A stretch of DNA of 64,000 bases, from the NCBI RefSeq assembly GCF_012295525.1, contig NZ_CP051167.1, positions 5,941,299 through 6,005,298 of the forward strand. The letters run 5' to 3'. The notes beneath the pieces were generated by a model. It had not been told where the DNA came from. It did not search any database and saw only the letters and a program-made list of their open reading frames with translations. Positions within the stretch are counted from its first letter, which is position 1. Each line of letters begins with the position of its first letter. The translations under genes were made by a program, and so were the position numbers. Shown here in pieces: positions 3,401 through 64,000 of this stretch. The DNA is from Oxynema aestuarii AP17 (GTDB lineage: Bacteria > Cyanobacteriota > Cyanobacteriia > Cyanobacteriales > Laspinemataceae).

Positions 3401-4009
3401 ATGCTCAAAAATCGCCTCACTGCCTTGGTTTTAGCGGGCGGTTCGAGTTCGCGGATGGGGCAGGACAAAGCCCTCTTAACTGTTGGAGGTCGGACATTTT
3501 TGCAGAAAGTCTGCGAAGTCGCGCGCCAGTGTTGCGATCGCGTCTGCATCCTGACCCCGTGGCCCGAACGCTATCAATTTTTAAATGAATTGCCCTCATG
3601 GGGAGCAGGGGAGATCGCCTTTCTCGACGAACTCCATCCCGGAGAAGGACCGTTAGTGGCGTTATGCGACGGTTTGGCGCAGGTCGAGAGCGAGTGGGTA
3701 TTGTTGCTGGCGTGCGATTTGCCGTTCTTGGACGGGGCGATCGTGGCACGCTGGGCCGCCCAATTAGATGCCCTTTCCCCGGAGATTCTGGCGTCGGTTC
3801 CGCAACAGGACAGTTTGTGGCAGCCGACATGTGGTTTTTACCGATCGCCGATTCTACCGCACCTGCAAGGGTTTGTCGCTCGGGGCGGGCGATCGTTCCA
3901 ACGGGGGTTGAGGGAGCTTCCGGTGCAGGCGATCGCCTTGAACTCAGCCGAGTCACAAATGTTGCTTAATGTCAATACCCCGGAAGCGTTTCGATCGCTG
4001 CAAAATTAG
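3401..4009 (+). CDS. mobA: Molybdenum cofactor guanylyltransferase MobA.
   Basis: The N-terminus carries LTALVLAGGSSSRMGQDKALL, the MobA nucleotide-binding signature. The length is about 200 aa. Confidence 0.8.
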   Translation: MLKNRLTALVLAGGSSSRMGQDKALLTVGGRTFLQKVCEVARQCCDRVCILTPWPERYQFLNELPSWGAGEIAFLDELHPGEGPLVALCDGLAQVESEWVLLLACDLPFLDGAIVARWAAQLDALSPEILASVPQQDSLWQPTCGFYRSPILPHLQGFVARGGRSFQRGLRELPVQAIALNSAESQMLLNVNTPEAFRSLQN

Positions 4010-4194
4010 GGTTTTGGGGGGCGATCGCACCGCCGAGGATCCTCGAATGAGTAAAAAAACTGACTTTGGTTCCGAGTTCCCAGGGATTCTTTGGAAAGAT
4101 TTTGGAATCCTTGCTTATAATCTGTACAGGAATCTATAGATTTCTCAATAGGTTACTTGCGAACCTTTACAAACTCAGTAGTTCAAACCCTTGA

Positions 4195-4938
4195 ATGATG
4201 CCCCGGATACTCGTCATCGACGATGACCCTGCGATTTCCGAATTAGTTGCCGTCAATCTCGAAATGGCTGGCTACGAAGTCAGCCAAGCTGAAGATGGCA
4301 TCAAAGGTCAGGCTCTAGCGCTCCAGCTTCTGCCGGATTTGATCATGCTCGATCTGATGCTGCCTCGCGTGGATGGATTTACTGTCTGTCAGCGTCTGCG
4401 CCGCGACGAACGAACTGCCGACATCCCCGTATTAATGTTGACGGCTTTGGGTCAAACTCAGGATAAAGTCGAGGGCTTTAATGCAGGGGCTGACGACTAC
4501 CTGACGAAACCGTTTGAAGTTGAGGAAATGCTCGCTCGGGTACGCGCTTTGTTGCGCCGAACCGATCGCATTCCCCAAGCGGCGAAACATACGGAAATTC
4601 TCAATTACGGCCCGCTCACCCTGGTTCCGGAACGATTTGAATGTATTTGGTTTGGCCAAACGGTGAAGTTGACCCATTTGGAGTTTGAGTTACTGCATTG
4701 CTTGCTCCAACGTCACGGTCAAACGGTGTCGCCGAGTGAAATTCTCAAGGAAGTGTGGGGTTACGATCCCGACGATGACATCGAAACGATTCGCGTTCAC
4801 GTCAGACATTTGAGAACGAAGCTCGAACCGGATCCGCGTCATCCTAAATATATCAAAACCGTTTATGGGGCGGGTTATTGTTTGGAGTTACCCAATACCC
4901 CCGTTAGCGAACGCCAGGAAGATGTAGAAGCCGGGTAG
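4195..4938 (+). CDS. rpaA: OmpR-family two-component response regulator, RpaA-like.
   Basis: The receiver domain [26 protein letters not shown]...[15 protein letters not shown] and a winged-helix C-terminus are present. From memory the sequence closely resembles the circadian-output regulator RpaA. The OmpR-family call is secure; the rpaA identity is recollection, not computed. Confidence 0.6.
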
Positions 4939-7781: not shown

Positions 7782-9473
7782 ATGGATCTGGGGGATATGT
7801 CAAAGTTGAATTTCGTTCGTACGATCTGCGCTTGGGGAATGGCGATCGCGCCGAAGTCGCGGCGGCGGCGATCGCGCCTCCGATTTGTCGCACTGTTTGC
7901 CACCTGCTGCTTGTTGGCGGTCAGTTGCGGATCGCGAGAAAGCACGCAAGTCACTGAATCTCCGGGGGAACCCGGACGAATTACGATCGGCACGATCGCC
8001 AAAGTGCGAACCCTAGATCCGGCAGATGCTTACGAAAATGCGGCGGGAACCTTTCTCTACAATTTGGGCGATCGTCTCTACACCTACAAAACCGGGACGA
8101 CCCAGATCGAACCCCAACTCGCCAGCGCACTCCCCACCATCGGCGAGGACGGTTTGACCTATACGATTCCCTTGCGCGAAGGGGTGAAGTTTCACGACGG
8201 AAGCGCTTTCAACGCCGAAGCGATGAAGTTTTCTTTAACTCGGTTTATCGAAAATGGCGGGATTCCCTCGTCGATCTTAGGGGAAGTGGTCGAGGCGATC
8301 GAGGCGACCGGAGAATATGAGCTAACCATTACTTTGAAAAAGCCGTTTGCCGCCTTTACTTCCCTCTTGACATTTACTGGAACTTGTGCAGTCTCCCCCC
8401 AGGCTTACGAAATTGGCGACGGTAAATTCCAACCGGATCGATTTGTCGGAACCGGACCGTATAAATTAGCCAGTTACGGGACCGATTCGATCCAATTCGA
8501 CGTTTTCGAGGACTATTGGGGCGAACAACCCGCCAATCTCGGCGTCGATGTTCGGCGTTATTCTAGTGCTTCCAACGTGTACAATGCCTTGCAAACCGGG
8601 GCGATCGATTTAACCTACGGGACGTTAGATCTCGATCAAATTGCTCAGTTGGAAAAAGAGGCACAAGCGGGTAAGTTTAAAGGGGTTACCGGACCGGGAA
8701 ATGGCATTTATTATTTAAGTTTGAATTTGCAAAGCGAACCGTTAAACCGTCCCGAAGTGCGACAGGCGATCGCGGCGATCGTCAACCGTCCTTTACTGCA
8801 ACAACGAGTTTTTCGCGGACAAATCGAACCGATTTACAGTCTTTTACCCGCCACCTTAGACGAGTATTACAAACCCGTCTTTCAAACTTACGGCGATGGC
8901 GATGGCGAAAAAGCCTTAGCCCTGCTCGTACAAGCCGGATATTCACAACAAAATCCCTTGAATTTAGAGTTGTGGTATCGCTCTAATATTACCAGCAATG
9001 GTTTAGTTGCCACCACGATTAAAGCGGCGGCAGAACAGCAATTAAAAGGCTTCGTCAATATCGACCTGAAGAGTGTGGAATCGGCGACAGCTTATCAAAA
9101 TTTGGATAAAGGGGTTTATCCTATTTTCTTATTAGATTGGTCTCCGGACTTTCTCGATCCGGATAACTATATCCAACCGTTTATGGACTGCGATCGCGGC
9201 TCGGCGGAAACCGGATGTCAGGAAGGGGCGAGCAAATTACAAGGATCGTTTTATTACAGCGATCGCGTTAACGAGTTAATCGATCTCGAACGACAAGAAC
9301 GAGACCCGGTAAAACGTCAGGCAATTTTTGCCGAATTACAAGATATTTTAGCCCGCGACGTGCCGTTCGTTCCTTTATGGCAAAGTCGGCAATATCTGTT
9401 CGCCCAACCCAATCTTGAAGGGGTTGCGCTTCAACCCACTCAACACGTCAATTTTGCGACAATTAAAGAGTAG
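7782..9473 (+). CDS. ABC transporter substrate-binding lipoprotein, family 5 (oligopeptide/dipeptide/nickel type).
   Basis: A signal peptide with a lipobox LLAVSCGS is followed by a periplasmic binding-protein fold of about 540 aa typical of DppA/OppA/NikA. The start could be 7782 or 7797. Confidence 0.8.
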   Translation: MDLGDMSKLNFVRTICAWGMAIAPKSRRRRSRLRFVALFATCCLLAVSCGSRESTQVTESPGEPGRITIGTIAKVRTLDPADAYENAAGTFLYNLGDRLYTYKTGTTQIEPQLASALPTIGEDGLTYTIPLREGVKFHDGSAFNAEAMKFSLTRFIENGGIPSSILGEVVEAIEATGEYELTITLKKPFAAFTSLLTFTGTCAVSPQAYEIGDGKFQPDRFVGTGPYKLASYGTDSIQFDVFEDYWGEQPANLGVDVRRYSSASNVYNALQTGAIDLTYGTLDLDQIAQLEKEAQAGKFKGVTGPGNGIYYLSLNLQSEPLNRPEVRQAIAAIVNRPLLQQRVFRGQIEPIYSLLPATLDEYYKPVFQTYGDGDGEKALALLVQAGYSQQNPLNLELWYRSNITSNGLVATTIKAAAEQQLKGFVNIDLKSVESATAYQNLDKGVYPIFLLDWSPDFLDPDNYIQPFMDCDRGSAETGCQEGASKLQGSFYYSDRVNELIDLERQERDPVKRQAIFAELQDILARDVPFVPLWQSRQYLFAQPNLEGVALQPTQHVNFATIKE

Positions 9474-9618
9474 CGATCGTCGCGGATTCCCGCTTTTGTG
9501 GGAATCCATCACCTCGTTTATTCGCCAACCGATTCAGAACTCCTGTAGCGAACATCAATCATCTAGACGAGCGATCGAATCTAATAATCTAAAAAAATCT
9601 AAACTCTAAACGCCCAAC

Positions 9619-10644
9619 ATGTCTCGTTCAAAAGCCTTACAATCTTATATCCTCATTCGCTTATTGCTGGCGCCGTTGATGTTGTGGACGATTACCACCT
9701 TGGTTTTCCTCCTCCTACGGGCGACTCCCGGGGATCCCATCGATGCGATCCTCGGACCGAAAGCGTCGGACGAATTTAAAGAGCAAATGCGCGAACAGTT
9801 GGGATTGGGCGATCCGTTGTGGTTGCAATATGTCAATTACATGGGACGGTTGCTCAGTTTTGACCTGGGGACTTCGATTACCAGTCGCGGACAAAAGGTG
9901 TGGGAAATTATCGGCGACTTTTTCCCAGCGACGGTAGAATTGGCAGTGGTGAGTATGGCGATCGCCCTGATTGTCGGAATCGGGGTGGGGATGATGTCCG
10001 CTTCCCGTCCCAATACGGTTTGGGATGCGGGGGGACGCCTGTTCGGGATTTTGACTTATTCGATTCCGATGTTCTGGTTTGGGACGATCGTGCAATTGGT
10101 GTTTGCGGTTCAACTGCGTTGGTTTCCGTTGGGAACCCGCTATCCCACCGAGATTCCCGTTCCGAAAACGATCACCGGACTTTATACGATCGACAGTTTG
10201 CTGACGGGTCAGTTCGACCAATTTTTCGCCGCCTTGCACCATTTGGCGCTTCCCTGTCTGACCTTGGGAATTCTGATTAGCGGTATTTTCGAGCGCATTG
10301 TCCGGGTCAATCTCAAGCAAACATTGCAAGCGGACTATGTAGAAGCAGCACGGGCGCGCGGCATCCCGGAAGGTCGCATTTTAGTCGCCCACGCGCTCAA
10401 AAATGCCATGATTCCGGTGATTACGGTCATGGGATTGACTTTGGCGGCGCTCCTCGGCGGTGCGATTTTGACGGAAGTGACGTTTTCCTGGCCCGGATTG
10501 GCGAATCGACTGTACGAGGCGATTTCCCTGCGCGACTATCCGACGGTGCAGGGGATCGTGGTCTTTTTTGCGGCGATCGTGGTGTTGGCGAGTATTCTCA
10601 TCGATATTTTAAATGCGTATATCGACCCGCGCATTCGCTATTAA
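9619..10644 (+). CDS. ABC transporter permease, DppB/OppB type.
   Basis: It has multiple transmembrane segments and the EAA-like loop ...YVEAARARGIPEGRIL.... The C-terminus ends ...YIDPRIRY. Confidence 0.85.
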   Translation: MSRSKALQSYILIRLLLAPLMLWTITTLVFLLLRATPGDPIDAILGPKASDEFKEQMREQLGLGDPLWLQYVNYMGRLLSFDLGTSITSRGQKVWEIIGDFFPATVELAVVSMAIALIVGIGVGMMSASRPNTVWDAGGRLFGILTYSIPMFWFGTIVQLVFAVQLRWFPLGTRYPTEIPVPKTITGLYTIDSLLTGQFDQFFAALHHLALPCLTLGILISGIFERIVRVNLKQTLQADYVEAARARGIPEGRILVAHALKNAMIPVITVMGLTLAALLGGAILTEVTFSWPGLANRLYEAISLRDYPTVQGIVVFFAAIVVLASILIDILNAYIDPRIRY

Positions 10645-10653
10645 TTGATGGAG

Positions 10654-11460
10654 TTAACTATCGGGACGGGCGATCGTACTCAAGATTTGGTCGACGCGAT
10701 TCGCGGATTGGGTATTGCCTTGGAGTTCAAATAAATCCCGGGCATTTGTTAAAACTATTTGTGCTTCTTGCTCTTGACCTTTTTGATATAAAATAATGCC
10801 TAAATTGGCGTGAGCTTCGGCAAATTCAGGCTCGATCCGAATGGCATCGCGATAGGCGGCGATCGCGGCATCTTCTTCGCCTAAATTGACCCAAGCATTG
10901 CCCATGTTGTAATAAGCTTTGCTGTAGTTTGGCAAAATTTCGATCGCCCGTTTGTAGGCTTCGATCGCCTCGAAAAAGTTTTCATTTTTAGCCAGGGCAT
11001 TGCCTAAGTTGTAATGAGCGGCTGGCAATTGCGGATCGATTTGGATCGCCGTTTCATACGCTTCGATCGCGCGATCGATTTCTCCTCGATTGACAAAAAT
11101 AACGCCGGAATTGACGTGAGCTTCGGCTAAATTGGGATTGAGGCGGAGTGCTTTTCGATACTCTTCTAAAGCCCCTTCTAAGTCCCCTCGTTCTTGTAAG
11201 GTCGTGCCGAAGTTATAATGTTCTTCGGCTTCGTCGAGCTCGTTATTTTCGGGTTGTTGGGCGACGGTAGCGGGGAAATTCTTAAGTAACATTTCCCGAT
11301 CGCTTGTGGGGACGTGAGGCGGCCATTGTCTTTGAGAAAGAGGCGTCAAACGGGCGATCGCCGGAGTGGAAATCGCACAACTGAAAGCAAATATCGTGGC
11401 GGCGAACCAGTAAAATTGACGCAGCATTGGGTGGGATTTTTTATTGTCTATAAAGTTCAT
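10654..11460 (-). CDS. Tetratricopeptide repeat (TPR) protein with N-terminal signal/TM segment.
   Basis: There are about six tandem 34-aa repeats with the W-LG-Y / A-F-P pattern (AIEAYKRAIEILPNYSKAYYNMGNA...). Confidence 0.7.
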   Translation of the reverse strand: MNFIDNKKSHPMLRQFYWFAATIFAFSCAISTPAIARLTPLSQRQWPPHVPTSDREMLLKNFPATVAQQPENNELDEAEEHYNFGTTLQERGDLEGALEEYRKALRLNPNLAEAHVNSGVIFVNRGEIDRAIEAYETAIQIDPQLPAAHYNLGNALAKNENFFEAIEAYKRAIEILPNYSKAYYNMGNAWVNLGEEDAAIAAYRDAIRIEPEFAEAHANLGIILYQKGQEQEAQIVLTNARDLFELQGNTQSANRVDQILSTIARPDS

Positions 11461-11629
11461 TATTGTAGCATTTTTTAGTAAAAATTAAAACGTAGCTTTG
11501 GCGAGAAATGATTTTCTCCTTGAGTAAATTTATCGCCACAATTCAAGGGTTGAAAAGTGGCGACGATCGCCCTTATTCTCCCTTATAACCCCGGCGAGGC
11601 GATTGTCCTGGGCAGACGGTAAGCACAAA

Positions 11630-11689
11630 GCGCGAAGCCATGCCGTAGGCTATGGCGCACCCTCCGCGAAGCGCGAAGCCATGCCGTAG
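11630..11689. repeat. 19-bp direct repeat GCGCGAAGCCATGCCGTAG, two copies 22 bp apart, upstream of anmK.
   Basis: The copies at 11630-11648 and 11671-11689 are identical. An inverted GCCAT/ATGGC motif lies between them. Confidence 0.7.
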
Positions 11690-11891
11690 ACGAGATCGCG
11701 GCGATCGCGCGGTTTCGCTCAAAAACTAGCTTCAAAACTTATAAAAGCGACAAACCCTTTGAAACCATCTCGCGATAGAATTTTCACAGCAGCAATCTAG
11801 ACGATCGACGATCGACCCTACTCGAATCCATGACCGACCTTGCTTTCCCTTATCTTCTCGTTCGCGACGATCGCGAGGAACCCCAAACCGT

Positions 11892-13100
11892 ATGACCCGA
11901 GTCATTGGCGCCATTAGTGGCACGTCGGTGGACGGGATCGATGTTGCATTAGTAGAGATCGCGGGAACCGAACTCGATTTAGAAGTCAACTTACTCGCCG
12001 CTCGGACCCATCCCTATCCCCACGCCTTACAAGAGGAAATTTTAGCCGTTTGTGGGGGGAAACCGTTAACGATGGCGGCTTTGGCAGAACTCGACGATGC
12101 GATTGCGGGCGAATTCGCCCGGGCTGCCCTCTCCTTGCTCCCCCAACAGCCCCCCGTAGACCTGATCGGCTCTCACGGTCAGACCGTCTATCACCGACCG
12201 CCTGTCGGTTCCCGGGACAATGGCTCGCGCCGTCTCGGCTACAGTTTGCAACTGGGACGGGGGGAGGCGATCGCCCAGTTGACCGGAATCACCACAGTTT
12301 CTAACTTCCGGGCTGCAGATATTGCCGCAGGGGGGGAAGGCGCGCCCCTCGTCCCCAAAGTCGATCGGGCGTTGTTGGGCGATCGTCAGAAAACGCGCTG
12401 CATCCAAAACCTCGGCGGGATCGGCAACGTGGCATATTTGCCCCCGCGATCGGATCCCCACGAGACCCCGGAACCGATCCTCGGTTGGGATACCGGCCCG
12501 GCGAATAGCCTCTTAGATCTCGCCGTGCGGCGTTTGAGTCGGGGTCAACAAAGTTACGATCGCGGTGGCGCCTGGGCGGCCACCGGAACCCCCTGCGAAC
12601 CCCTGGTCGAACAGTGGTTGCAAGAACCGTTTTTCCAACAACCTCCGCCGAAGTCTACCGGACGCGAACTCTTCGGCCCGGACTATCTAGACCGATGTTG
12701 GCAAGAGGCGCAATCCTACGCTCTCTCCGACGAGGATTTCCTCGCTACCCTCGTCGAATTTACCGTCGCCTCGATTGTCGTCAATTACCGTGCGTTTCTT
12801 CCGGTTCAACCGGATGAGGTCTTGCTTTGTGGGGGCGGAAGTCGCAATCTGTATTTAAAACAACGCTTGCAAGCACGCTTGGCGGCGACGTCGAACCAAC
12901 CCGTCTCGGTGCTGACCACCGATGAGGTCGGTCTCAATGCGGATTTCAAAGAAGCGATCGCCTTCGCGGTTCTCGCCTACTGGCGGGTGCGAGGCATTCC
13001 GGGAAACCTCCCCGAATGTACTGGAGCCGAAACGCCCATGTTGCTGGGTGATATCCATCGGACCCCTCGGCGATCGCGTGCTAGCATAGAATGCCAGTAA
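11892..13100 (+). CDS. anmK: Anhydro-N-acetylmuramic acid kinase AnmK.
   Basis: The N-terminus [20 protein letters not shown] is the AnmK signature. The length is 402 aa. Confidence 0.85.
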
Positions 13101-13134
13101 CGGCAGTCAGTCGTGCAATTTAAGGAATTGTGCC

Positions 13135-13596
13135 GTGACTCACACCTTTTTATTAGAACCCGGTCGGTGGACTTTGGAAGGCACTTGGCTCGAACGAAAC
13201 GGAATGCTCGTGCCTGTCAAGGGTAAAACCTTGGTCGCCTGGTCGCGGGAAGATTGGTTTAATATGGTGACCAAGTTGATTTTTCCGGGCAGCGATCGCC
13301 ACGAAATTACACTACAGTACCGGGGTCATTTCGATTTAGGGGAGCGTCAGTATACTTTTGTCCTCCAACACAGCGATCTCGGTCGGGTCGAAGGGGAAGG
13401 CTGGATCGCCCCGGAGTCGATCGTCCAGCGTTTCTGGGTGCTCGGCGATCGCAAGCACCGCCGCAGTGGCTTTGAAACCCTCCACCGCCTCAGTCCGAAT
13501 ACCTACCATCATTCGAGCGGTCTGATGGCGGGGCATTACTTGGTCAGTGCGATGGAAGCCACCCTAGAACGGATTGCCACCGAACAAAACCAGTGA
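13135..13596 (+). CDS. Hypothetical protein.
   Basis: An ORF of 153 aa with coding-like composition. I recognise no family. Confidence 0.4.
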   Translation: MTHTFLLEPGRWTLEGTWLERNGMLVPVKGKTLVAWSREDWFNMVTKLIFPGSDRHEITLQYRGHFDLGERQYTFVLQHSDLGRVEGEGWIAPESIVQRFWVLGDRKHRRSGFETLHRLSPNTYHHSSGLMAGHYLVSAMEATLERIATEQNQ

Positions 13597-13701
13597 ACTG
13601 GGATCTTCGGTTCACTCCCATCGACGAATAAGGCGACTGAGTCCGGCGATCGTACCGTTTCAGTCGCCTTATTGGCGATCTTTAAAAATAACGCCGAATT
13701 T

Positions 13702-14583
13702 TTAATCTTGATGGGCCGGGAAGAAAATAATCGGTTCGCAACTGCGGCGCAGCAGTTCCCGGCGGAAGGAGGGCAGCCAGTCCCACAGATTGCTCAGGTT
13801 GTCTGCGGACACGGCGATCGCGCAAATATCCGACATCTGCGCCAATTCCAAAATATCGACGATTGGCTCGCCCAAGCGCACTTCCACATCGACTTGCAAG
13901 CCGAGGGCTTCGAGATCCGCTTTAATCGGGACGAGGGTTTCGTTCGCTTTACGCAATTGTTCGTCTTTGGGAATCTTATGCAGGACCCCCGCATCGACGA
14001 CCCAGGCTAGCAAACAGCGTTCTAGGGAGTTGGCGGGTCGATCTTTTGCGTAATACTTGAGCCGTTCCACCGTCTCGCTAGAGCGATCGCCCCCGTCGTA
14101 GGGAATCGCAATGTAACGCAATAAGTGTTGGCAACGTAAGGCCAATTCTTCGCTGGTCAACGCCGAAATTAACTCGGTCGGGAAGGTCATCAAGGGAATG
14201 CGCGTCCGTCCCGACAGCTCGATAGTCGTGCTACCAAACAGGTTTTCGCTGAGGGAATTGCGGTGGGACGTACCGAGGACGATTAAATCACTTTGGTACT
14301 TTTTGGCGATTTTGACAATTTTGTCGCTCGGTGGACCCGACAGCAATTCGACCGCGACTTCTACGCCCTCCGGCACGGTTTCGGGGATCGAACGGCTCAG
14401 GCGATCGCGTGCCCGCTCCATTTTTTCCGTATCTTCGCGAGGAATTTGACCTTTTGTCCACAAGGGAACGGCGTGTAGAAAAACTACTTGCTCGATCCCC
14501 CCTGCCGCCAAGTTGGGGAGGAAGTTCCCCAAACGATGCAGACCATCCGCAAAATCCGTACAAACTAAAAGCCGCCTAAACAT
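13702..14583 (-). CDS. Universal stress protein family protein (tandem Usp domains).
   Basis: Two UspA-like halves are present (LLVCTDFADG... and ...DLIVLGTSHRNSL...). The start is set at MFRRLL (ATG at 14583) rather than the longer ORF. Confidence 0.65.
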   Translation of the reverse strand: MFRRLLVCTDFADGLHRLGNFLPNLAAGGIEQVVFLHAVPLWTKGQIPREDTEKMERARDRLSRSIPETVPEGVEVAVELLSGPPSDKIVKIAKKYQSDLIVLGTSHRNSLSENLFGSTTIELSGRTRIPLMTFPTELISALTSEELALRCQHLLRYIAIPYDGGDRSSETVERLKYYAKDRPANSLERCLLAWVVDAGVLHKIPKDEQLRKANETLVPIKADLEALGLQVDVEVRLGEPIVDILELAQMSDICAIAVSADNLSNLWDWLPSFRRELLRRSCEPIIFFPAHQD

Positions 14584-15292
14584 TCTGTTTTGATTAAGAT
14601 TTAACTTTGAAGCTCTCAAATGCAGACATCGAGCGACGCCTGAAATCGCTGGGTCATGCCACGATAGGACTCGATTCGATCGCCGATCTCTTGTAGATCT
14701 AGGCGCGATCGGGGCGATTTGTTTCAAATTCTAGCACTTCTCATTGCCGCTCAGTCCGGCTCCGGTTCGGGCGATCGCCGTTCGTGGCGCTCTGATTACA
14801 TCGGCGATCGCCCCGGCTTTCAGCGTCCGATCGTCACTCAAAACACTTAATTTGCCGATCTTTTGAGGGCAAAAACCCTCAGTTCTCGCCGTTTTTAATC
14901 CCTGTGGCAGCTTATTGGTTTTATCAGATATTTTTAGAACAACTCTCGTTGGCTTCGATCGCCGCGATCTTCACCGACTCGCGACTCGATTCTCTCAAAA
15001 AGATCGACGGTCGATCGCCAGGTGCCCGTCCCACGTCTCGTTCTCCTTTTGAAGGGCGATCGGAGAACAATAGCTATCGCAACAGTCAAATTGAGCCCTG
15101 AGAAGGAGCGATACTCGACACCCGATCTTCGTTAACTCTCTCGGCAGTATGCGCCGTGCTTCTGACGCGATCGCGGGGAGTTAAACGCCCCGACATCCCC
15201 AGCTTTAGGTTCTCTCAAACGGAGAACGGAGCAAGAGAAGGAGGTCGTTGACTCGGTTGACCCACGGAAGGGATGACAACCCGTAAACCGGG

Positions 15293-43349: not shown

Positions 43350-44503
43350 TGAATTAGCATAAAATAGATACAAGAATCCTATGAAAAGCTGATTTCAGTG
43401 ATGGAAAACTAGCTCTCTAAACCAGTGGACATAACTAATCTTTTCACACATAAAAGCCTGTAAATATCGCAACTTATCTAATAATGATGAACCCCATTCT
43501 TGGTTAATTTTTACTAATTTTAAAATTAGATATCCGATTAAACAGCAATAAATCTGGATTTCCATTCCATTCACATTTTTCGTGATAAATTTATCCAACT
43601 TTAAGTGCATTTTCAAGAACTTCCACAGCAATTCAATTTGCCAGCGTAGTCGATAAAATTCACCAATTTCTTCGTTACTTATTCCTCCTTCTCCTGTCTC
43701 TGGCAAATTCGTCACTAAGCGAAATTCAGTTTTTTCTTCCCGGTCGCAAAACATTACTACTCTTCCTTGTACTTGTGCTGTTCCTGTCCCCATTAAATAT
43801 TCCCCATTCTCTAACATTTCTAATTTAATGTTTTTTCGGATTCTCAAGACGAAGTAGCGATTTTTTTGAGCTTGAAGTTGGGCAATTCTTTCTAAGCTGC
43901 AAAAACCTCTATCCATTACGGCGACTCCGTTTTCCGGCGTGGCTTCTATCGTTTCATTTCCATATTTGCTATCGTGTCCTTGACCCAAATGAATTGATAT
44001 TCCTCCTGGGTTTCCTGTCACTAAGTTAATGCCACTAAACAGTTTCAATTGGTGATATCCTTGATGCCATAAGAGTTTACTCGTCAAAGTGATAATGGTT
44101 GAATCTAAAGGAAATATCATCAACTCTTTATCTGAATTTTGGGATTTTTTGGCTACTTCTTTTTTCAATTCATCCCACAATCGATGAAAAACTTCTGGAC
44201 TACGAGTTTTACTGGCTTTTGAGAAGGTTGATATATCTACGGATTCTCCGCGAATATTTAGTCTTTTAAACAAACTTCTCATCGTTGTTTGACTCTGGTC
44301 TAAAATGAAATTTAGCCAAATTGAGACAAACTTGAAAGTGTCTAGTACTGGATAATCGTCTTGGGGCAGATGACTTAGATGTTTTTGGAGAATTTCAGGA
44401 AAGTTTGATACAATCATTGTTAAGTATTTATCGAAATATTGCCCCTATTTTACTTGATTAGGGACTTTTTTTGTCAAATTTCTCTTAACATTCAACACTT
44501 CTG
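43328..44503. mobile_element. IS4-family insertion sequence (1176 bp) with 13-bp perfect terminal inverted repeats and 9-bp target-site duplication.
   Basis: The left IR is CAGAAGTGTTGAA (43328-43340). The right IR is TTCAACACTTCTG (44491-44503). The TSD GGCTGATTT lies at 43319-43327 and 44504-44512. The interior is AT-rich. Confidence 0.8.
43395..44417 (-). CDS. IS4-family DDE transposase.
   Basis: The 340-aa product has the C-terminal Y-x2-R-x3-E-x6-K motif (YRLRWQIELLWKFLK) typical of IS4-type transposases. Confidence 0.85.
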   Translation of the reverse strand: MIVSNFPEILQKHLSHLPQDDYPVLDTFKFVSIWLNFILDQSQTTMRSLFKRLNIRGESVDISTFSKASKTRSPEVFHRLWDELKKEVAKKSQNSDKELMIFPLDSTIITLTSKLLWHQGYHQLKLFSGINLVTGNPGGISIHLGQGHDSKYGNETIEATPENGVAVMDRGFCSLERIAQLQAQKNRYFVLRIRKNIKLEMLENGEYLMGTGTAQVQGRVVMFCDREEKTEFRLVTNLPETGEGGISNEEIGEFYRLRWQIELLWKFLKMHLKLDKFITKNVNGMEIQIYCCLIGYLILKLVKINQEWGSSLLDKLRYLQAFMCEKISYVHWFRELVFHH

Positions 44504-45184: not shown

Positions 45185-45330
45185 CATTTAGAGCCCCCTA
45201 AATCTCCCTTAAAAATCCCCCTAAATCCCCCTTAAAAAGGGGGACTTTCCTCGTTCCCCCCGAAATCCCCCCTTCGCCCCCCTTTCAAAGGGGGGTTGGG
45301 GGGATTGGGGGATCGGCACTGTTGTACCTC
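45185..45330. repeat. C5-6/G5-6 nested-palindrome repeat cluster (MITE-like).
   Basis: There are successive CCCCC(C)-AT-GGGGG(G) hairpins, for example CCCCCTTAAAAAGGGGG and AATCCCCCC-ttcg-CCCCCCTTT-c-AAAGGGGGG-tt-GGGGGGATT. The same architecture recurs inside tnpB at 60468-60513. Confidence 0.7.
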
Positions 45331-59198: not shown

Positions 59199-59990
59199 CT
59201 ACAAGCCGCCTCCCTGACCCATTCCTTGGAACATCAGCCAGGAAAGGAAGAAATTCGCAATAAAAATCGCGAGTAAGGAGGTGACGACGGCGGTGGTGGT
59301 GGATTGTCCGACGCCTTTCGCTCCGCCTGTGGTGGTCAAGCCCCAGCTACAGCCGATCGTGGCAATTAAACCGCCAAAAAATAAGCCTTTAATTCCGGCG
59401 CTGAGGATATCCCAAATATCTAAAAAGTTGCGAATCGATTCGAGAAACATGGTTTGCGACAAGCTGTAGAGATTGGTGGCGATGAACAGCCCGCCGACTA
59501 GACCCGTGACTAGAGAAAACAAGGTCAAGATCGGCAACATGATGCAACAAGCGAGAAAACGCGGAATCACGAGGTAATCGATCGGATCGGTTTTGAGGAT
59601 GTAGAGGGCGTCAATTTGTTCGGTCACTTGCATGGTACCGAGCTCGGCGGCGAAGGCGGAACCGACGCGACCCGCGAGGATGACGGCGGTCAGGACGGGG
59701 GCGAGTTCTCTGGCGAGGGCGATCGCGAGGACCCCACCCACCGCACTCCCGGCGCCGAAGTTAATGAATTCTCGCGACACTTGGATGGTGAAGACCATCC
59801 CGACGAAGGCGGCGGTAATTAGGGCGATCAGCAGGGAGTCCGGACCGACGGCGGCGAGTTGTTCGAGGGTGTTGCGACGGTGGATTTTGCCGGAGAGTAG
59901 GTGATAGATGACTTGACCGCCGAGCATGATCGCGGCGAACGATCGCCGCATCCATTGGGTCAAGCTGGATTGAGATTTCTTTTTATTCAA
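59199..59990 (-). CDS. mlaE: MlaE-family ABC transporter permease (lipid asymmetry/phospholipid transport).
   Basis: A multi-TM permease of about 260 aa with the conserved MlaE core (...DALYILKTDPIDYLVIPRFLACCIMLPILT...). Confidence 0.8.
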   Translation of the reverse strand: MNKKKSQSSLTQWMRRSFAAIMLGGQVIYHLLSGKIHRRNTLEQLAAVGPDSLLIALITAAFVGMVFTIQVSREFINFGAGSAVGGVLAIALARELAPVLTAVILAGRVGSAFAAELGTMQVTEQIDALYILKTDPIDYLVIPRFLACCIMLPILTLFSLVTGLVGGLFIATNLYSLSQTMFLESIRNFLDIWDILSAGIKGLFFGGLIATIGCSWGLTTTGGAKGVGQSTTTAVVTSLLAIFIANFFLSWLMFQGMGQGGGL

Positions 59991-60077
59991 GGCGACGCCG
60001 AACGTACAATGTTGAATTGTAGCGAATTGAATTGACTCATCTGCAATAATTTTTTTGAGTGAACTACCGCTATTGAA

Positions 60078-61304
60078 TCAAAGATTACAATAGCGGCTTC
60101 CCTCTTCACTGGGGACTGCGCTAGATAGAACTGAAGTTCTACCACCTCGTCTTAGATCCCCTCCAAGGGCAGTAGAGCGAGTTCCTAACTCTAATATCCG
60201 TAAGCCTTCATTTTTGAGATTGATGGCCGCATTGATATCCCTGTCATGATGAGTTTGGCAATGTTCGCAAGTCCAGCTTCTCACATCGAGAGGTAAGGTT
60301 TTGACTTGATTGAGGCATACATGGCAGGTTTTAGAAGAAGGAAACAATCGATCGACTTCTAGATCAACTTTTCCTTCTGATTCAGCCTTGTACTTTAACA
60401 TCGTACAAAACATCCCCCAACCGACATCACTAATCGCTTTGGCGAGTTGGTGATGGCGAACCATGCCTATCCCCCCTTTAGTTCCCCCCTTATTAAGGGG
60501 GGTTAGGGGGGATTCGACCACAATCACTTGGTTTTCGTTCACTATCTTACGGGATAGCTTGTGGAGAAAATCTTCACGACAGCGACTTATTTTGGTGTGA
60601 ATCTTAGCAACTTTTACCCGCGATTTATTGCGGTTGTTGCTGCCTTTCCTTTTTCGAGCGTGTTTTTGCTGTTTTCTTTTTAGGTTTCGCGCGTGTTTAT
60701 CAAAATGCTTGGGATTATTATATTTCGACCCCTCACTGGTCATCGCAAAATCGGTCAGCCCTAAATCAATGCCAATTGCTTTTCCTTCAGTTGAGAGGAG
60801 GGGAGGTTCTTTTTTACCCTCTACCAAAACTGAAGCATAATATTTACCATCTGGATTTTTGGAGAGGGTTACAGTTTTGATTTTTCCCTCAAAACTTCGA
60901 TGCTGACGACAACGCACTAACCCAACTTTAGGCAGTTTGATGTAGTTTCCCTCAAACTTAACATTTTGAGGATAACTGATAGATTGCCTTCCCTGCTTGG
61001 ATTTGAATCGGGGTAATTTTGCCCGTTTCTCAAAGAAGTTTCGATACGCGGTCGATAAGTTCAACGCCACGACTTGCAAGCATTGGGAATAGACATCTTC
61101 TTTAAGCCAAGGGTATTCCTTTTTGAGGGCAGGTAATAATCCCTGAAGATAACCCCTCGATAGACCTTTCCCGGTCGATTGATAAGTCTCTTGGCACAAA
61201 TTTAACGCATAGTTCCAATACCAACGACAGCAACCAAAGCTCTTGGCTAAAGTCGCTTGTTGCTTGTGGGTTGGATAGATGCGGTATTTGTACGCCTTGA
61301 ACAT
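60078..61304 (-). CDS. tnpB: TnpB (IS605 OrfB, RuvC-like RNA-guided endonuclease family).
   Basis: It has the N-terminus MFKAYKYRIYPT, RuvC-I AIGIDLGLTDF, the zinc finger CHVCLN...CEHCQ and RuvC-III HDRDINAAINL. Confidence 0.85.
   Translation of the reverse strand: MFKAYKYRIYPTHKQQATLAKSFGCCRWYWNYALNLCQETYQSTGKGLSRGYLQGLLPALKKEYPWLKEDVYSQCLQVVALNLSTAYRNFFEKRAKLPRFKSKQGRQSISYPQNVKFEGNYIKLPKVGLVRCRQHRSFEGKIKTVTLSKNPDGKYYASVLVEGKKEPPLLSTEGKAIGIDLGLTDFAMTSEGSKYNNPKHFDKHARNLKRKQQKHARKRKGSNNRNKSRVKVAKIHTKISRCREDFLHKLSRKIVNENQVIVVESPLTPLNKGGTKGGIGMVRHHQLAKAISDVGWGMFCTMLKYKAESEGKVDLEVDRLFPSSKTCHVCLNQVKTLPLDVRSWTCEHCQTHHDRDINAAINLKNEGLRILELGTRSTALGGDLRRGGRTSVLSSAVPSEEGSRYCNL
60468..60513. repeat. Nested-palindrome C6/G6 repeat inserted in frame within tnpB.
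   Basis: TATCCCCCCTTTAGTTCCCCCCTTATTAAGGGGGGTTAGGGGGGATT encodes ...VVESPLTPLNKGGTKGGIGMV... where TnpB proteins normally have a short ...VED-LNVKGM... segment. It belongs to the same family as the 45270-45313 repeat. Confidence 0.55.
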
Positions 61305-61371
61305 TATCGCCGATATAGCCAGATGATAAGATTATAACTGATTTGCCGAAGAGTCGCTTTCATCCCCCGAT

Positions 61372-62397
61372 TCACCTTCGGTAGAATCGGGGAATTCCCG
61401 CTCCCATTGTTAAACAAGTTGCGATGCGATATAGCTGTTTAGTCCATCGATCTAAAAGATCTGTGCCGATAGTAGTAATGATAACTGAATCAATTGCATT
61501 CAACTCGACAAGTTTTTTTAAAATTTCTAATGCAGTTCGCGTTTTCCCGGTTCCTGTTGCCATTTCTAAAACACCGTGACAGTGGTCTAGAAATATTTCA
61601 ATTGCTTCGCTTTGGTGTCGCCAAGTATTCTGTTTTTTAGATGATTTTAAATTATAATTATCCCGAGCTTCAGATACCGAAAACTGATTGAATGTTACCT
61701 CATATCTTTCCTCAGTCGGTGGGCGATCGGGTGCCATTCTCAGCAGCGATCGCCGCGCGGCTTCCGGAAATTCAATAACTTCTACATTGTCAGTTCTATT
61801 ATTCCAGAGGCGATCGAAGTCTTCAACTTTTCGTAAAACTCTCGATCGCACTTCTGAAGACCAAGAGCAAAAAACATCGATACATTCAAAATTGGCAATT
61901 AAACCGGAAGAGCTTTCATTCGCAGAACCAGTAAAAGCAACACTGTTATTGTTTCGATCTGTAAAAATTCCCAGTTTTTCATGATAAATTCCATAACCAT
62001 TGACAGCTTTGGTAATCGCTAATTTGATTTCGAGAATATCTCGTGCTAACAACCAAGCCAAACAAGCCAGACGATCGCCTACAATCTTTTCAAATTCTCG
62101 ATCGAGTTCTCTCGCGATCGCCCGCGCAATAATTTCTTCGCGTTGTTGCAATCCCATCGCGATCGCGTGAGTATCTTCTGAAGATAACTTCGGAGACGTA
62201 ATTAATTGCATTTTACCGCCCGAACGAATTAAAGCCGTCAACCCTTTGGCGGCAATTGCCATCGAACTGCTTGAAAAAAAACCGACGGCGCGTCGATAAA
62301 GTATTGCTTTTGCCAAGCAAGGGATGTAAAAATCGTCAATCAAATTATCGCGATCGCTCCGATAATCTTCTTTAAGGTCTAACTCAGCTAAATTCAA
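61372..62397 (-). pseudogene. 3'-truncated gene for a PLD-family nuclease fused to a superfamily-2 (ResIII/DEAD-like) helicase.
   Basis: An N-terminal PLD HxK(x)4D motif (GIYHEKLGIFTDRNNNSVAFTGSANES) is followed by helicase motif I (MATGTGKTRTAL). The ORF stops shortly after, with no motif II-VI or helicase C-domain, exactly where the IS605 element begins. The low GC is island-like. Confidence 0.65.
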
Positions 62398-62526
62398 CTC
62401 GGATACTCCTCCTGTTGAGGCGATCGGTCACCGCGCCAATTGAGTGAGATTAGAGCAAGCTCTAGTTGCACGAAAATGACCGATAAAAGCCTTGTAAAAA
62501 TCTACAATTTATTCCTTGAGATCGAG

Positions 62527-63117
62527 CTACAAAAATCGACTTAAATCGAACTCTTTTTGTCCGTGTTCGTCTTCCTTAAAACGTTCTCCAATCAACAACA
62601 ACGCTAACTTGTCGGAATAATCGATCGCCCCGCGCAGTTCCTCACGCAAGACCTCCAAACCTCCATTGGCGTATTCCTCGAAAATCTGACCGCGTTGAGC
62701 TTCCGCATTCGGATCCGTGGGTGAAATAATATTGGGGTTGCCGAGTTCGACGATCGCCAGTAACTTGAAGAGAAAATCATAGCCGCGCGAAATGAAAATT
62801 TCCGTCGGAATGGGGGAGGGTTCGCGCTTCGCCGCTTGTTGTACCGGGATCCGTTGGTGTCGCTTGGCGCCTAACGCCGCCGCAAAAGCTAACACGTCAG
62901 CATAAGTGGAAAAAGGCCCCTCTTTATTGTCGTCGTCGGTGAGGGCTTTGACTAATTCGGCTTTATCTTTCGCCACTTTAACGCGATAGGAACCCATGAG
63001 GATCGAAATCGGGCTGAACCGAAGGGCAGATGCAATAATAATATATTTACCATATTTGCCGTGATTGAGCATAAAATAGAGCGATCGCCTGTTTTGGCGA
63101 TCGCTCCGATATTGCAA
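62527..63117 (-). CDS. Hypothetical protein co-located with the PLD-helicase gene.
   Basis: An ORF of 196 aa with lower GC than the core genes. I recognise no family. Confidence 0.45.
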   Translation of the reverse strand: MQYRSDRQNRRSLYFMLNHGKYGKYIIIASALRFSPISILMGSYRVKVAKDKAELVKALTDDDNKEGPFSTYADVLAFAAALGAKRHQRIPVQQAAKREPSPIPTEIFISRGYDFLFKLLAIVELGNPNIISPTDPNAEAQRGQIFEEYANGGLEVLREELRGAIDYSDKLALLLIGERFKEDEHGQKEFDLSRFL

Positions 63118-63134
63118 CTCTCCTTTAGTTCGAC

Positions 63135-64000
63135 CTAACTCGATATGCGATACACGGCCACATCATCAACGATAAACTCCGTAGCCCACTGACCGTCATT
63201 ACTGCCGAGAGAGAAGAAAACGTAATCTAAATCCTGAAATTCCAGCCCGTAAGCTTTGTATGTCGCTACTGCACTTTGCGACCCCGCCCGATAGGCGAGA
63301 ATATCGCTCGCTTTGAGGTCGTCTACCCCCGGACTGGCATAATAACTAATCGATCCGTCCTCATTAAATGCCATTCCTAGGGTCCACCAACCCCCGCGCG
63401 TGTGGCGGCGATCGCTCGCAAAAGCATCCTCCCCTTTTTCATTCGCCCGAACTACAAACTGATAGGATTGTTCCCCAGCTTTATTGTTAAACCAAATCCA
63501 AATTCCCGGCCAATAATTCTCGCTTTTGCCATTTTTTTCGCCCGTCGCCCCGACGCGAAAACCGATGTGATACCCTTGGCGATTTTCCCATTCACTTAAT
63601 GGCGGTACGTAAATCCGGGTGACGACACTAACTCCCTTACCTTTTGCTAAATTAACACTCTGATTTCCCGGACGCAGTAACAAGTCATCTTGCTGCAATG
63701 TTCCTCGGGTTACATTGGGGGTCCCGCAGTCTTTAGTCGCCAATCTCAACGCATATTGACTGCCCGGTATACCGCCAGAAGGGGTGGGAACTTGTTCGAC
63801 AATATCCGGTTGTCCGCGTACTTGCCCTTCATGCCATTTATTATTCGTGGACTGACCGAAAGGAGCATTTTTGGCGGGGATTTCGTTGACCCAGCCGGAA
63901 CCGGGATTGTGGTAGCGATTGTAAACTTTGGGGGCGTTATAAGTGTAACTCCAGTTACGGTCTTCAAAATTGTCACTAAATGAATCTACACGGGTACCCG
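63135..64000 (-). CDS. Hypothetical protein, 5'-partial at the window edge.
   Basis: In-frame translation upstream of the listed 63749 start stays open to position 64000 (...YNRYHNPGSGWVNEIPAKNAPFGQSTNNKWHEGQVRGQPD...), so the gene continues beyond the window. The product is Gly/Asn/Trp-rich and probably a secreted beta-rich protein. Confidence 0.5.
   Translation of the reverse strand, partial: GTRVDSFSDNFEDRNWSYTYNAPKVYNRYHNPGSGWVNEIPAKNAPFGQSTNNKWHEGQVRGQPDIVEQVPTPSGGIPGSQYALRLATKDCGTPNVTRGTLQQDDLLLRPGNQSVNLAKGKGVSVVTRIYVPPLSEWENRQGYHIGFRVGATGEKNGKSENYWPGIWIWFNNKAGEQSYQFVVRANEKGEDAFASDRRHTRGGWWTLGMAFNEDGSISYYASPGVDDLKASDILAYRAGSQSAVATYKAYGLEFQDLDYVFFSLGSNDGQWATEFIVDDVAVYRISS

Follow-up and report, generated by a model that had tools for sequence, protein, structure and literature searches.

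The right-hand end of the 64,000-nucleotide genome stretch of the filamentous cyanobacterium Oxynema aestuarii AP17 analysed here, which we call the window, very probably holds the remnant of a solitary PbeABCD defence operon that lay between a resident dnd_assoc_4 gene and an mlaE-like permease gene. The operon was truncated by an insertion sequence (IS) and a 4-kb deletion. What is left is the first half of pbeA, which ends directly at a complete TnpB-only element of the IS200/IS605 family, and the motif TTTAA lies at both ancestral breakpoints. In the published system, PbeA joins an HKD nuclease to an SF2 translocase/helicase, PbeB is small and disordered, PbeC is DndD-like with a CxC zinc hook and PbeD is DndE-like. 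PbeABCD halts phage/virus DNA propagation, and all four pbe genes are needed for full protection (PMC6459918). Aravind and colleagues describe it as the CxC ABC-ATPase-centred system; in their re-annotation, an HKD-SF2 protein is accompanied by a CxC ABC ATPase, a DndE cognate and a small protein that is disordered (PMC10853773). The locus is a degraded copy of a known type of system beside an ordinary IS, and no new principle is involved.

The truncated pbeA and the intact operon in relatives

The open reading frame (ORF) at 61372-62397 has about half the usual PbeA-family length of 645-663 aa. It matched the PADLOC PbeA profile PDLC02703 strongly (E = 3e-119, 397 bits), over profile positions 2-318 of 626 only. 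The ORF contains one HKD motif (HEKLGIFTD...GSANES), a linker and the start of the SF2 helicase with the Walker A sequence GTGKT (motif I). Among Pfam families, ResIII was matched at positions 6-75 of 164 only (E = 3e-8), PLDc_2 was matched weakly (E = 1e-4) and Helicase_C was not matched. The complete PbeA architecture, an HKD domain followed by SF2 motifs I-VI, was not found in the window, motifs II-VI being gone. The native part, about 329 codons, runs to window position 61410, where homology to the closest relative stops, and is joined in frame to a tail of 12 codons and a stop encoded by the IS.

The missing part was identified in relatives. A sister genome was found through the identity of the neighbouring protein p338 to the protein P0001 on a 6.3-Mb Joint Genome Institute (JGI) contig, of which 21 kb around P0001 were taken (L001); four contigs about 98% identical came from other JGI metagenomes (L002-L005). 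In blastn comparisons, L001 10152-12738 aligned to window 64000-61410 at 99.6% and L001 16745-21017 aligned to window 60058-55786 at 99.93%. Exactly between these two blocks, 4006 bp of L001 (12739-16744) had no counterpart in the window, and 1351 bp of the window (60059-61409) had no counterpart in L001. The same flanking genes in L001 and in L002-L005 enclose the series dnd_assoc_4-pbeA-pbeB-pbeC-pbeD. The full order in L002-L005 is TamB, DUF3110, SIS, M50 peptidase, hydrolase, a 220-aa gene, p338, dnd_assoc_4, an intact PbeA of 653 aa, Sp-CxC, ATPase, a 155-aa gene, MlaE, DUF3119, DUF3086 and PlsY.

The lost 4006 bp held the helicase half of pbeA, with motif II (DEVH) and the C-terminal lobe, the whole of pbeB, pbeC and pbeD, and a spacer of about 320 bp. 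The whole PbeA of L001 reached 905 bits on the PADLOC PbeA profile, with Helicase_C present. The pbeB gene of L001 and L002 encodes 63 aa with the Pfam domain Sp-CxC (PF20304, E = 5e-12). The pbeC gene of L001 encodes a 662-aa ABC ATPase with a CVC motif (...DECVCGRH...), which scored against many of the PADLOC models for PbeC (best E = 3e-24) as well as against DndD (E = 2e-16). The fourth gene of L001 and L002, of 155 aa, is pbeD. The 63-aa and 155-aa genes were identified by the Sp-CxC match, by size and by position; the published PbeB and PbeD have 66 and 152 aa (Xiong et al. 2019 Nat Commun 10:1688; PMC6459918). In the window, the IS comes directly after the pbeA remnant, so that pbeB is absent; pbeD is absent as well, and none of the 44 other window ORFs matched PbeC or DndD.

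Judged by its gene content, the system of this locus is a solitary PbeABCD. No Dnd, Ssp or methyltransferase genes were present within 10 kb on either side in L001 and L002 or among the 44 other window ORFs, and this state is shared with many published loci: of 553 PbeAC loci surveyed in 2019, 320 had no dndCD within 10 kb (PMC6459918). The gene order and the sizes of 653, 63, 662 and 155 aa in the sister loci are canonical for PbeABCD, and the window fragment matches PADLOC PbeA strongly. The window differs from the published system in keeping only the first half of PbeA, in having lost pbeB, pbeC and pbeD, in lacking a nearby DndCDEA or methyltransferase partner and in having an additional dnd_assoc_4 gene immediately upstream. 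Lacking the three partner genes as well as helicase motifs II-VI, the remnant would be unable to work as a Pbe system, and its ORF should be annotated as a pbeA pseudogene cut by an IS, not as a helicase or a restriction enzyme.

Base composition sets the pbe sequence apart from its surroundings. The core reference of 43 window ORFs had a GC content of 0.544 ± 0.033 (standard deviation) and a GC content at third codon positions (GC3) of 0.606 ± 0.057. The only compositional outliers of the locus were the pbeA fragment (GC 0.412, z = -4.1; GC3 0.336, z = -4.7) and the IS, represented by tnpB (GC 0.438, z = -3.3; GC3 0.423, z = -3.2). The dnd_assoc_4 gene was within the core GC range (GC 0.499, z = -1.4; GC3 0.548, z = -1.0) and the edge ORF p338 was at its low edge (GC 0.493, z = -1.6; GC3 0.479, z = -2.2). 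In L001, which carries the operon, the pbe genes have a GC content of 0.29-0.42 against 0.55-0.57 in the flanks, which points to a foreign origin of the pbe genes.

The initial annotation, made from the sequence alone, had proposed a low-GC island with a PLD-helicase remnant of a degraded defence module, and the intact operon at the same locus in relatives bears this out. The profile searches and the comparison with core genes that it had suggested gave the matches and the outlier values reported above. The island does start at a mobile element, as had been noted, since tnpB (60078-61304) abuts the remnant. The fusion had been described as restriction-like or anti-phage; it is a defence gene, and it belongs to a specific known system instead of being a generic fusion. 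The AT-rich region had been drawn at 61.4-63.1 kb, and the deviation is real for about 60.06-62.45 kb, the extent of the low-GC island, whereas the gene at 62.5-63.1 kb falls inside the core range. The two uncharacterised genes that had been counted as members of the island are not compositionally part of it; they are co-directional with the remnant, as stated, but lie upstream of it on the coding strand and do not follow it. Synteny is conserved in close relatives, with defence and not housekeeping annotations, so that the island itself is shared with them and only the truncation is strain-specific.

On the minus strand, from the window end inward, the order is p338, dnd_assoc_4, the pbeA remnant, tnpB and the mlaE-like permease gene (Table 1).

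Table 1 Features of the truncated pbe locus in window coordinates
Feature	Position	Strand	Details
p338, 3' part	63135-64000	-	288 codons; ORF 63135-63998, open to window end
dnd_assoc_4 ORF	62527-63117	-	196 codons from upstream TTG
dnd_assoc_4 from probable real start, ATG 62997	62527-62997	-	156 aa
pbeA remnant plus IS tail, ORF	61372-62397	-	341 codons
Native pbeA 5' half	61410-62397	-	About 329 of 653 codons; PADLOC PbeA match and L001 alignment
IS-encoded tail	61372-61409	-	12 codons TMGAGIPRFYRR plus stop; within IS left end; window/L001 junction comparison
TTTAA target motif (inferred target-adjacent motif)	61410-61414	-	Abuts IS left end directly
TnpB-only IS200/IS605-family element	60059-61409	-	1351 bp; blastn of L001 against window
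IS left end	61305-61409	-	Empty-site comparison with L001
tnpB	60078-61304	-	408 aa; NCBIfam and Pfam
Putative omega-RNA scaffold, conserved 3' region	60059-60235	-	Overlaps tnpB end; alignment of 28 relatives
mlaE-like ABC permease gene, core gene bounding the other side	59199-59990	-	Pfam MlaE on identical L001/L002 gene; GC 0.553

The TnpB-only element and the loss of the operon

The protein encoded by the element matched the NCBIfam model guided_TnpB with 335 bits (cutoff 100) and IS200_TnpB with 398 bits, slightly below the cutoff of 425. It contains the Pfam domains HTH_OrfB_IS605 (1e-20), OrfB_IS605, the RuvC domain (3e-25), and the zinc finger Cas12f1-like_TNB (1e-20). The empty site of L001 served to define the ends of the IS; hairpins were found at the ends, without target duplication. 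The empty site reads ...CGTTTAA/ATCC, the slash marking the breakpoint, and the IS left end adjoins TTTAA. The second ancestral breakpoint is likewise located 3' of TTTAA (...GTTTTAA/TCAAAAA). Since TTTAA occurs at only 0.36% of positions in the L001-only segment, its presence at both breakpoints is unlikely to be due to chance.

Relatives of the element support both ends. The left ends were surveyed at 69 loci with TnpB relatives of 60-76% identity; about two dozen of them, captured in the 160-nt upstream window, had TTTAA 8-12 nt before the conserved left-end hairpin, against a background of 0.002 per nt. At the right end, all aligned relatives stop on GGTAGTTCAC after a covarying hairpin, and the window element does likewise, exactly at 60059. 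Across 28 aligned relatives, conserved nucleotides and covarying stems extended as far as GTAGTTCAC, with none beyond. A terminal hairpin in this region shows compensatory changes, and in the window and loci L088-L119 hairpin stems covary, for example GCTATTG/CAATAGC against CCAACTA/TAGTTGG. With both ends intact and TTTAA adjoining, the element is complete and sits at a family-typical target. The conserved 3' region at 60059-60235 is probably the omega-RNA scaffold, as its conservation and stems suggest; an Rfam scan of 59-64 kb returned no omega-RNA family and only a sub-threshold match to manA (E = 0.2).

These features resemble those of IS200/IS605 elements of the ISDra2/IS608 peel-and-paste type, namely a TnpB that combines HTH, RuvC and zinc-finger domains, a short target motif beside a sub-terminal hairpin at the left end, no target duplication and a structured, conserved 3' end stopping at a fixed cleavage site. 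The target or target-adjacent motif is TTGAT for ISDra2 and TTAC for IS608; for the window element we infer TTTAA. Unlike ISDra2 and IS608, the window element lacks tnpA (none within the element; it was not looked for outside), its tnpB carries a repeat insertion next to the RuvC-II glutamate, and its insertion is coupled to a 4-kb deletion. The insertion in tnpB is in frame, adds about 10 aa net after the RuvC-II glutamate (about 60466-60512) and comes from a C6/G6 palindromic repeat; compared with six relatives, VEN-LNVK-GMV is replaced by VESPLTPLNKGGTKGGIGMV. Related intergenic copies of the C6/G6 repeat (CCCCCCTTAATAAGGGGGG and variants) are located at window 45226-45295, with 5 matches against 0.05 expected. 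The pair of an empty and a filled site fixes the ends and the inferred TTTAA target of an uncharacterised cyanobacterial TnpB element.

The deletion endpoints are exact, and we infer the route between the two states. The TnpB-only element now stands 3' of a TTTAA inside pbeA. In the simplest routes, two insertions at the two TTTAA sites may have been followed by recombination between the copies; alternatively, a single insertion at the mlaE-proximal site may have been followed by an adjacent deletion reaching to the upstream TTTAA, mediated by the target motif or by microhomology. The 4006 bp between the TTTAA in pbeA and the second TTTAA just upstream of mlaE are gone, leaving pbeA codons 1 to about 329 with the 12 IS codons and the upstream dnd_assoc_4. 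It is also conceivable, though we regard it as unlikely, that a solitary PbeABCD is costly through HKD self-targeting without a modification partner and was actively purged, with TnpB-guided cleavage driving the deletion. If TnpB-guided cleavage at an empty site of TTTAA plus guide had caused the deletion, the locus would show, in nature, how a transposon nuclease guided by RNA can remodel a defence locus.

L002 encodes another TnpB, different and truncated to 274 aa, on the minus strand at 3936-4760, between the SIS-domain and M50 peptidase genes; it is absent from L001. TnpB elements are evidently active in this lineage.

The neighbouring genes dnd_assoc_4 and p338

The 196-aa ORF that the initial annotation had left uncharacterised is dnd_assoc_4 (DNA phosphorothioation-associated protein 4; NCBIfam TIGR04062), with 175.5 bits against a cutoff of 74.25 over profile positions 2-151 of 151. 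Homologues comprised 1517 protein matches, all with PF27807, and 573 genome matches, and they are widespread in filamentous cyanobacteria. The gene is intact, and its DNA is identical in the window and L001. Exact-sequence look-ups of the window dnd_assoc_4 (with either of two starts) and of the pbeA remnant returned no identical entry.

Gene-context comparisons place dnd_assoc_4 in a recurrent cluster. In Microcoleus, the cluster consists of a TIGR04095 helicase (660 bits, above cutoff), a DndD-like ATPase, a gene of about 217 aa, dnd_assoc_4 and an EEP nuclease. In Laspinema, it consists of a helicase, a DndD-like ATPase, a 327-aa gene, a p338 homologue and dnd_assoc_4. The gene that closes this TIGR04095 (dnd_restrict_1)/DndD-like/dnd_assoc_4 cluster has a 57-65% orthologue in the window dnd_assoc_4. 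Pbe-type cassettes were found just downstream of dnd_assoc_4 in L011, L027, L053, L057, L058, L168 and L169, and in Microcoleus (L027, L053, L057, L058) and L168 they lie just downstream of the cluster. The placement of Pbe next to dnd_assoc_4 occurs with or without the helicase and ATPase partners. In the more distant L170, Pbe is not downstream of dnd_assoc_4, and dndC and dndD come after pbeD. A tandem arrangement of DndD-type and CxC-type systems has already been described, and the recurrent Pbe cassettes beside dnd_assoc_4 support the published idea that the two types are coupled (PMC10853773).

In contrast to that cluster, the window lineage has p338, the 220-aa gene and the hydrolase gene upstream of dnd_assoc_4 and no helicase or DndD-like ATPase, so dnd_assoc_4 is an orphan at this locus. 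We interpret it as a resident of the locus that had the pbe cassette land next to it, and do not count it towards the low-GC island; the two may be functionally linked. The candidate identification of dnd_assoc_4 as the PbeD of the operon was rejected, as the sister genomes have a separate 155-aa PbeD. The similarity between the two proteins is remote (BLASTP E = 2e-4 over 33 aa; hhalign probability 60% over 37 columns) and confined to the motif YA[NH]GG[LF][ED]VL. A profile search of the Protein Data Bank (PDB) with dnd_assoc_4 was uninformative, its one weak match being 2od0 (E = 0.02), which by its aligned sequence looks TfoX-like and not like DndE.

Two of the loci with Pbe next to dnd_assoc_4 have further peculiarities. 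In L169 of Coleofasciculus sp. D1-CHI-01, where PbeA is a 68% relative, the gene calls divide PbeC into two ORFs, one of 336 and one of 340 aa (9153-11151), which suggests another decaying Pbe operon; a gene for an MmeI-like type IIG methyltransferase/restriction enzyme lies directly downstream of that operon. In L057 of Microcoleus sp. C2D2 (10482-15075), the EEP-nuclease gene is present once in complete form and again as a 3' fragment just before the PbeABCD cassette, which looks like an insertion of the cassette into or next to the EEP-nuclease gene with partial duplication.

The large secreted-type protein cut by the window edge, p338, is 338 aa long in full and 100% identical to P0001 (L001 10001-11017). 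The edge ORF matched no family in the Pfam, NCBIfam or PADLOC profile searches. The AlphaFold2 model (predicted local distance difference test score 88) has an N-terminal helix at residues 23-38 and is otherwise all beta, and Foldseek matched it to calreticulin lectin domains, PL7 alginate lyases and the lectin-like domains (Hc-N) of neurotoxin Hc. No match was returned by a PDB sequence search with the p338 profile, so that the protein was placed by fold search alone. We read p338 as a concanavalin-like beta-sandwich protein that is secreted or anchored in the membrane. Its homologues are mostly 'secreted proteins' of Planctomycetes. It is present in 8 of the 82 dnd_assoc_4 loci and is missing at the dnd_assoc_4/Pbe loci of Microcoleus, Coleofasciculus and others, and it is most likely a bystander unrelated to defence. 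A homologue of about 60% identity lies directly upstream of dnd_assoc_4 in L012, L014-L017 and L022-L024 (Laspinema, Oscillatoria sp. HE19RPO and Phormidium pseudopriestleyi), so that the adjacency of p338 and dnd_assoc_4 is conserved across genera.

Decay of pbeA and alternative readings

Differences between the window and L001 were polarised with L002. L001 has a derived 4-bp deletion with a nearby substitution at about codon 33 of pbeA (L001 11838-11850, window 62298-62314), which causes a frameshift; the JGI call for this gene is a 611-aa product from an internal ATG. Two strains about 0.1% diverged thus carry independent pbeA lesions, a frameshift in L001 and the IS-linked 4-kb deletion in the window. 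Since the split from L001, the window remnant has acquired four derived substitutions, all of them non-synonymous and none synonymous. Three of these (61416, 61427 and 61448) lie within 38 bp of the IS junction, and a fifth window-derived substitution (60010) lies 48 bp beyond the other junction, so that four of the five window-specific substitutions in the 6.86 kb compared are within 50 bp of an IS junction (0.07 expected). The cluster might reflect mutagenic repair at the insertion or deletion, or the IS allele may have come in from a third lineage. Under the unlikely reading of an actively purged system, the independent lesions would fit and the cluster would hint at mutagenic repair of breaks connected with TnpB/TnpA activity.

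The ratio of non-synonymous to synonymous polymorphism (pN/pS) between L001 and L002, which is based on small counts, was 0.5-1.3 across the pbe genes (pbeA 0.61, pbeC 0.52, pbeD about 1) and was 0.11 for dnd_assoc_4, 0.07 for p338 and 0.0-0.23 for the core neighbours. The pattern fits relaxed constraint on the solitary Pbe system. The synonymous component alone (pS) was 0.00-0.036 for pbeABCD, about three-fold below the 0.04-0.10 of flanking core genes, reflecting either slower mutation of AT-rich DNA or exchange of the cassette between lineages after the split. The intact L002, the frameshifted L001 and the IS-deleted window form a natural before-and-after series of defence decay. The independent lesions in near-identical strains and the substitutions clustered at the IS junctions are the points of note here; otherwise the value of the result is mainly one of annotation hygiene, with a pbeA pseudogene and a 156-aa gene to be named dnd_assoc_4.

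Other readings of the locus were weighed against the loss of a Pbe operon. It is very unlikely that dnd_assoc_4 and the HKD-only PbeA fragment form a still-working, reduced defence or toxin module, in which the HKD nuclease would be freed of its helicase and the DndE-like protein would serve as its DNA-binding partner. In favour of it, the whole N-terminal domain with its HKD motif is preserved, and the IS-encoded tail closes the ORF cleanly, yet the changes in the remnant since the split from L001 were exclusively non-synonymous, and deletion of pbeB, pbeC or pbeD abolished protection whereas deletion of pbeA left low-level resistance (PMC6459918). Also in favour, dnd_assoc_4 is intact and under purifying selection, and all close PbeA homologues that were examined have it upstream. 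Its conservation is explained by a wide, Pbe-independent spread in cyanobacteria, where the 573 genome matches are mostly beside the TIGR04095 helicase and the DndD-like ATPase. We give equally little credence to the whole of 61.4-64.0 kb being one horizontally acquired defence island whose three genes form a single module. Composition separates the native dnd_assoc_4 and the low-edge p338 from the strongly deviating pbe sequence, even though all three genes are co-directional and closely spaced. Laspinema-type genomes do place a p338 homologue between the DndD-like ATPase gene and dnd_assoc_4, but p338 occurs in only a small minority of dnd_assoc_4 loci, and it is a signal- or transmembrane-segment-bearing concanavalin-like beta-sandwich protein with mostly planctomycete secreted homologues. 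With regard to a bounded island, no integrase was present among the called genes of L001 and L002; tRNA genes were not scanned.

Several observations weigh against the reading of a Pbe operon lost through a mobile element. No second copy of the IS was present in the 64-kb window, an exact 24-mer of the IS left end had no match in the metagenome contig collection, and a protein-based scan gave TnpB relatives of at most 76% identity and no further copy of the IS. The 155-aa and 63-aa genes matched no PADLOC PbeD or PbeB model. The predicted loss of function follows from the missing parts and from a four-gene requirement published for one archaeal system, and the HKD domain, complete in the remnant, may retain residual nuclease activity. 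IS elements are classic sites of mis-assembly, and the missing 24-mer would also agree with an assembly or chimera artefact in which a repeated IS collapsed and joined two distant TTTAA sites. Such an artefact is nevertheless extremely improbable: L001 matches both flanks collinearly at 99.6-99.9%, the gap between them corresponds exactly to the missing piece, and the complete IS has both ends typical of its family. Even a collapse of two IS copies would imply two real insertions, and pbeA would be disrupted regardless.

Elsewhere in the window, a second, unrelated mobile element encodes an IS4-type DDE transposase (43395-44417, minus strand; Pfam DDE_Tnp_1, E = 2e-25), which has the lowest GC content among the long window ORFs (0.357, z = -5.8). 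A PADLOC scan of the 44 long ORFs of window 1-59000 gave matches in one ORF each to mad3 (E = 2e-29), mad2 (1e-19), several PycC cyclase models (best 4e-26) and PDC-M21C (3e-15), which may merely reflect generic domains. Otherwise the window contains cyanobacterial housekeeping genes, such as those for ChlP, AnmK, LpxA/B/C-FabZ, Omp85/IAP75, SqdB, UbiB and CbiT.

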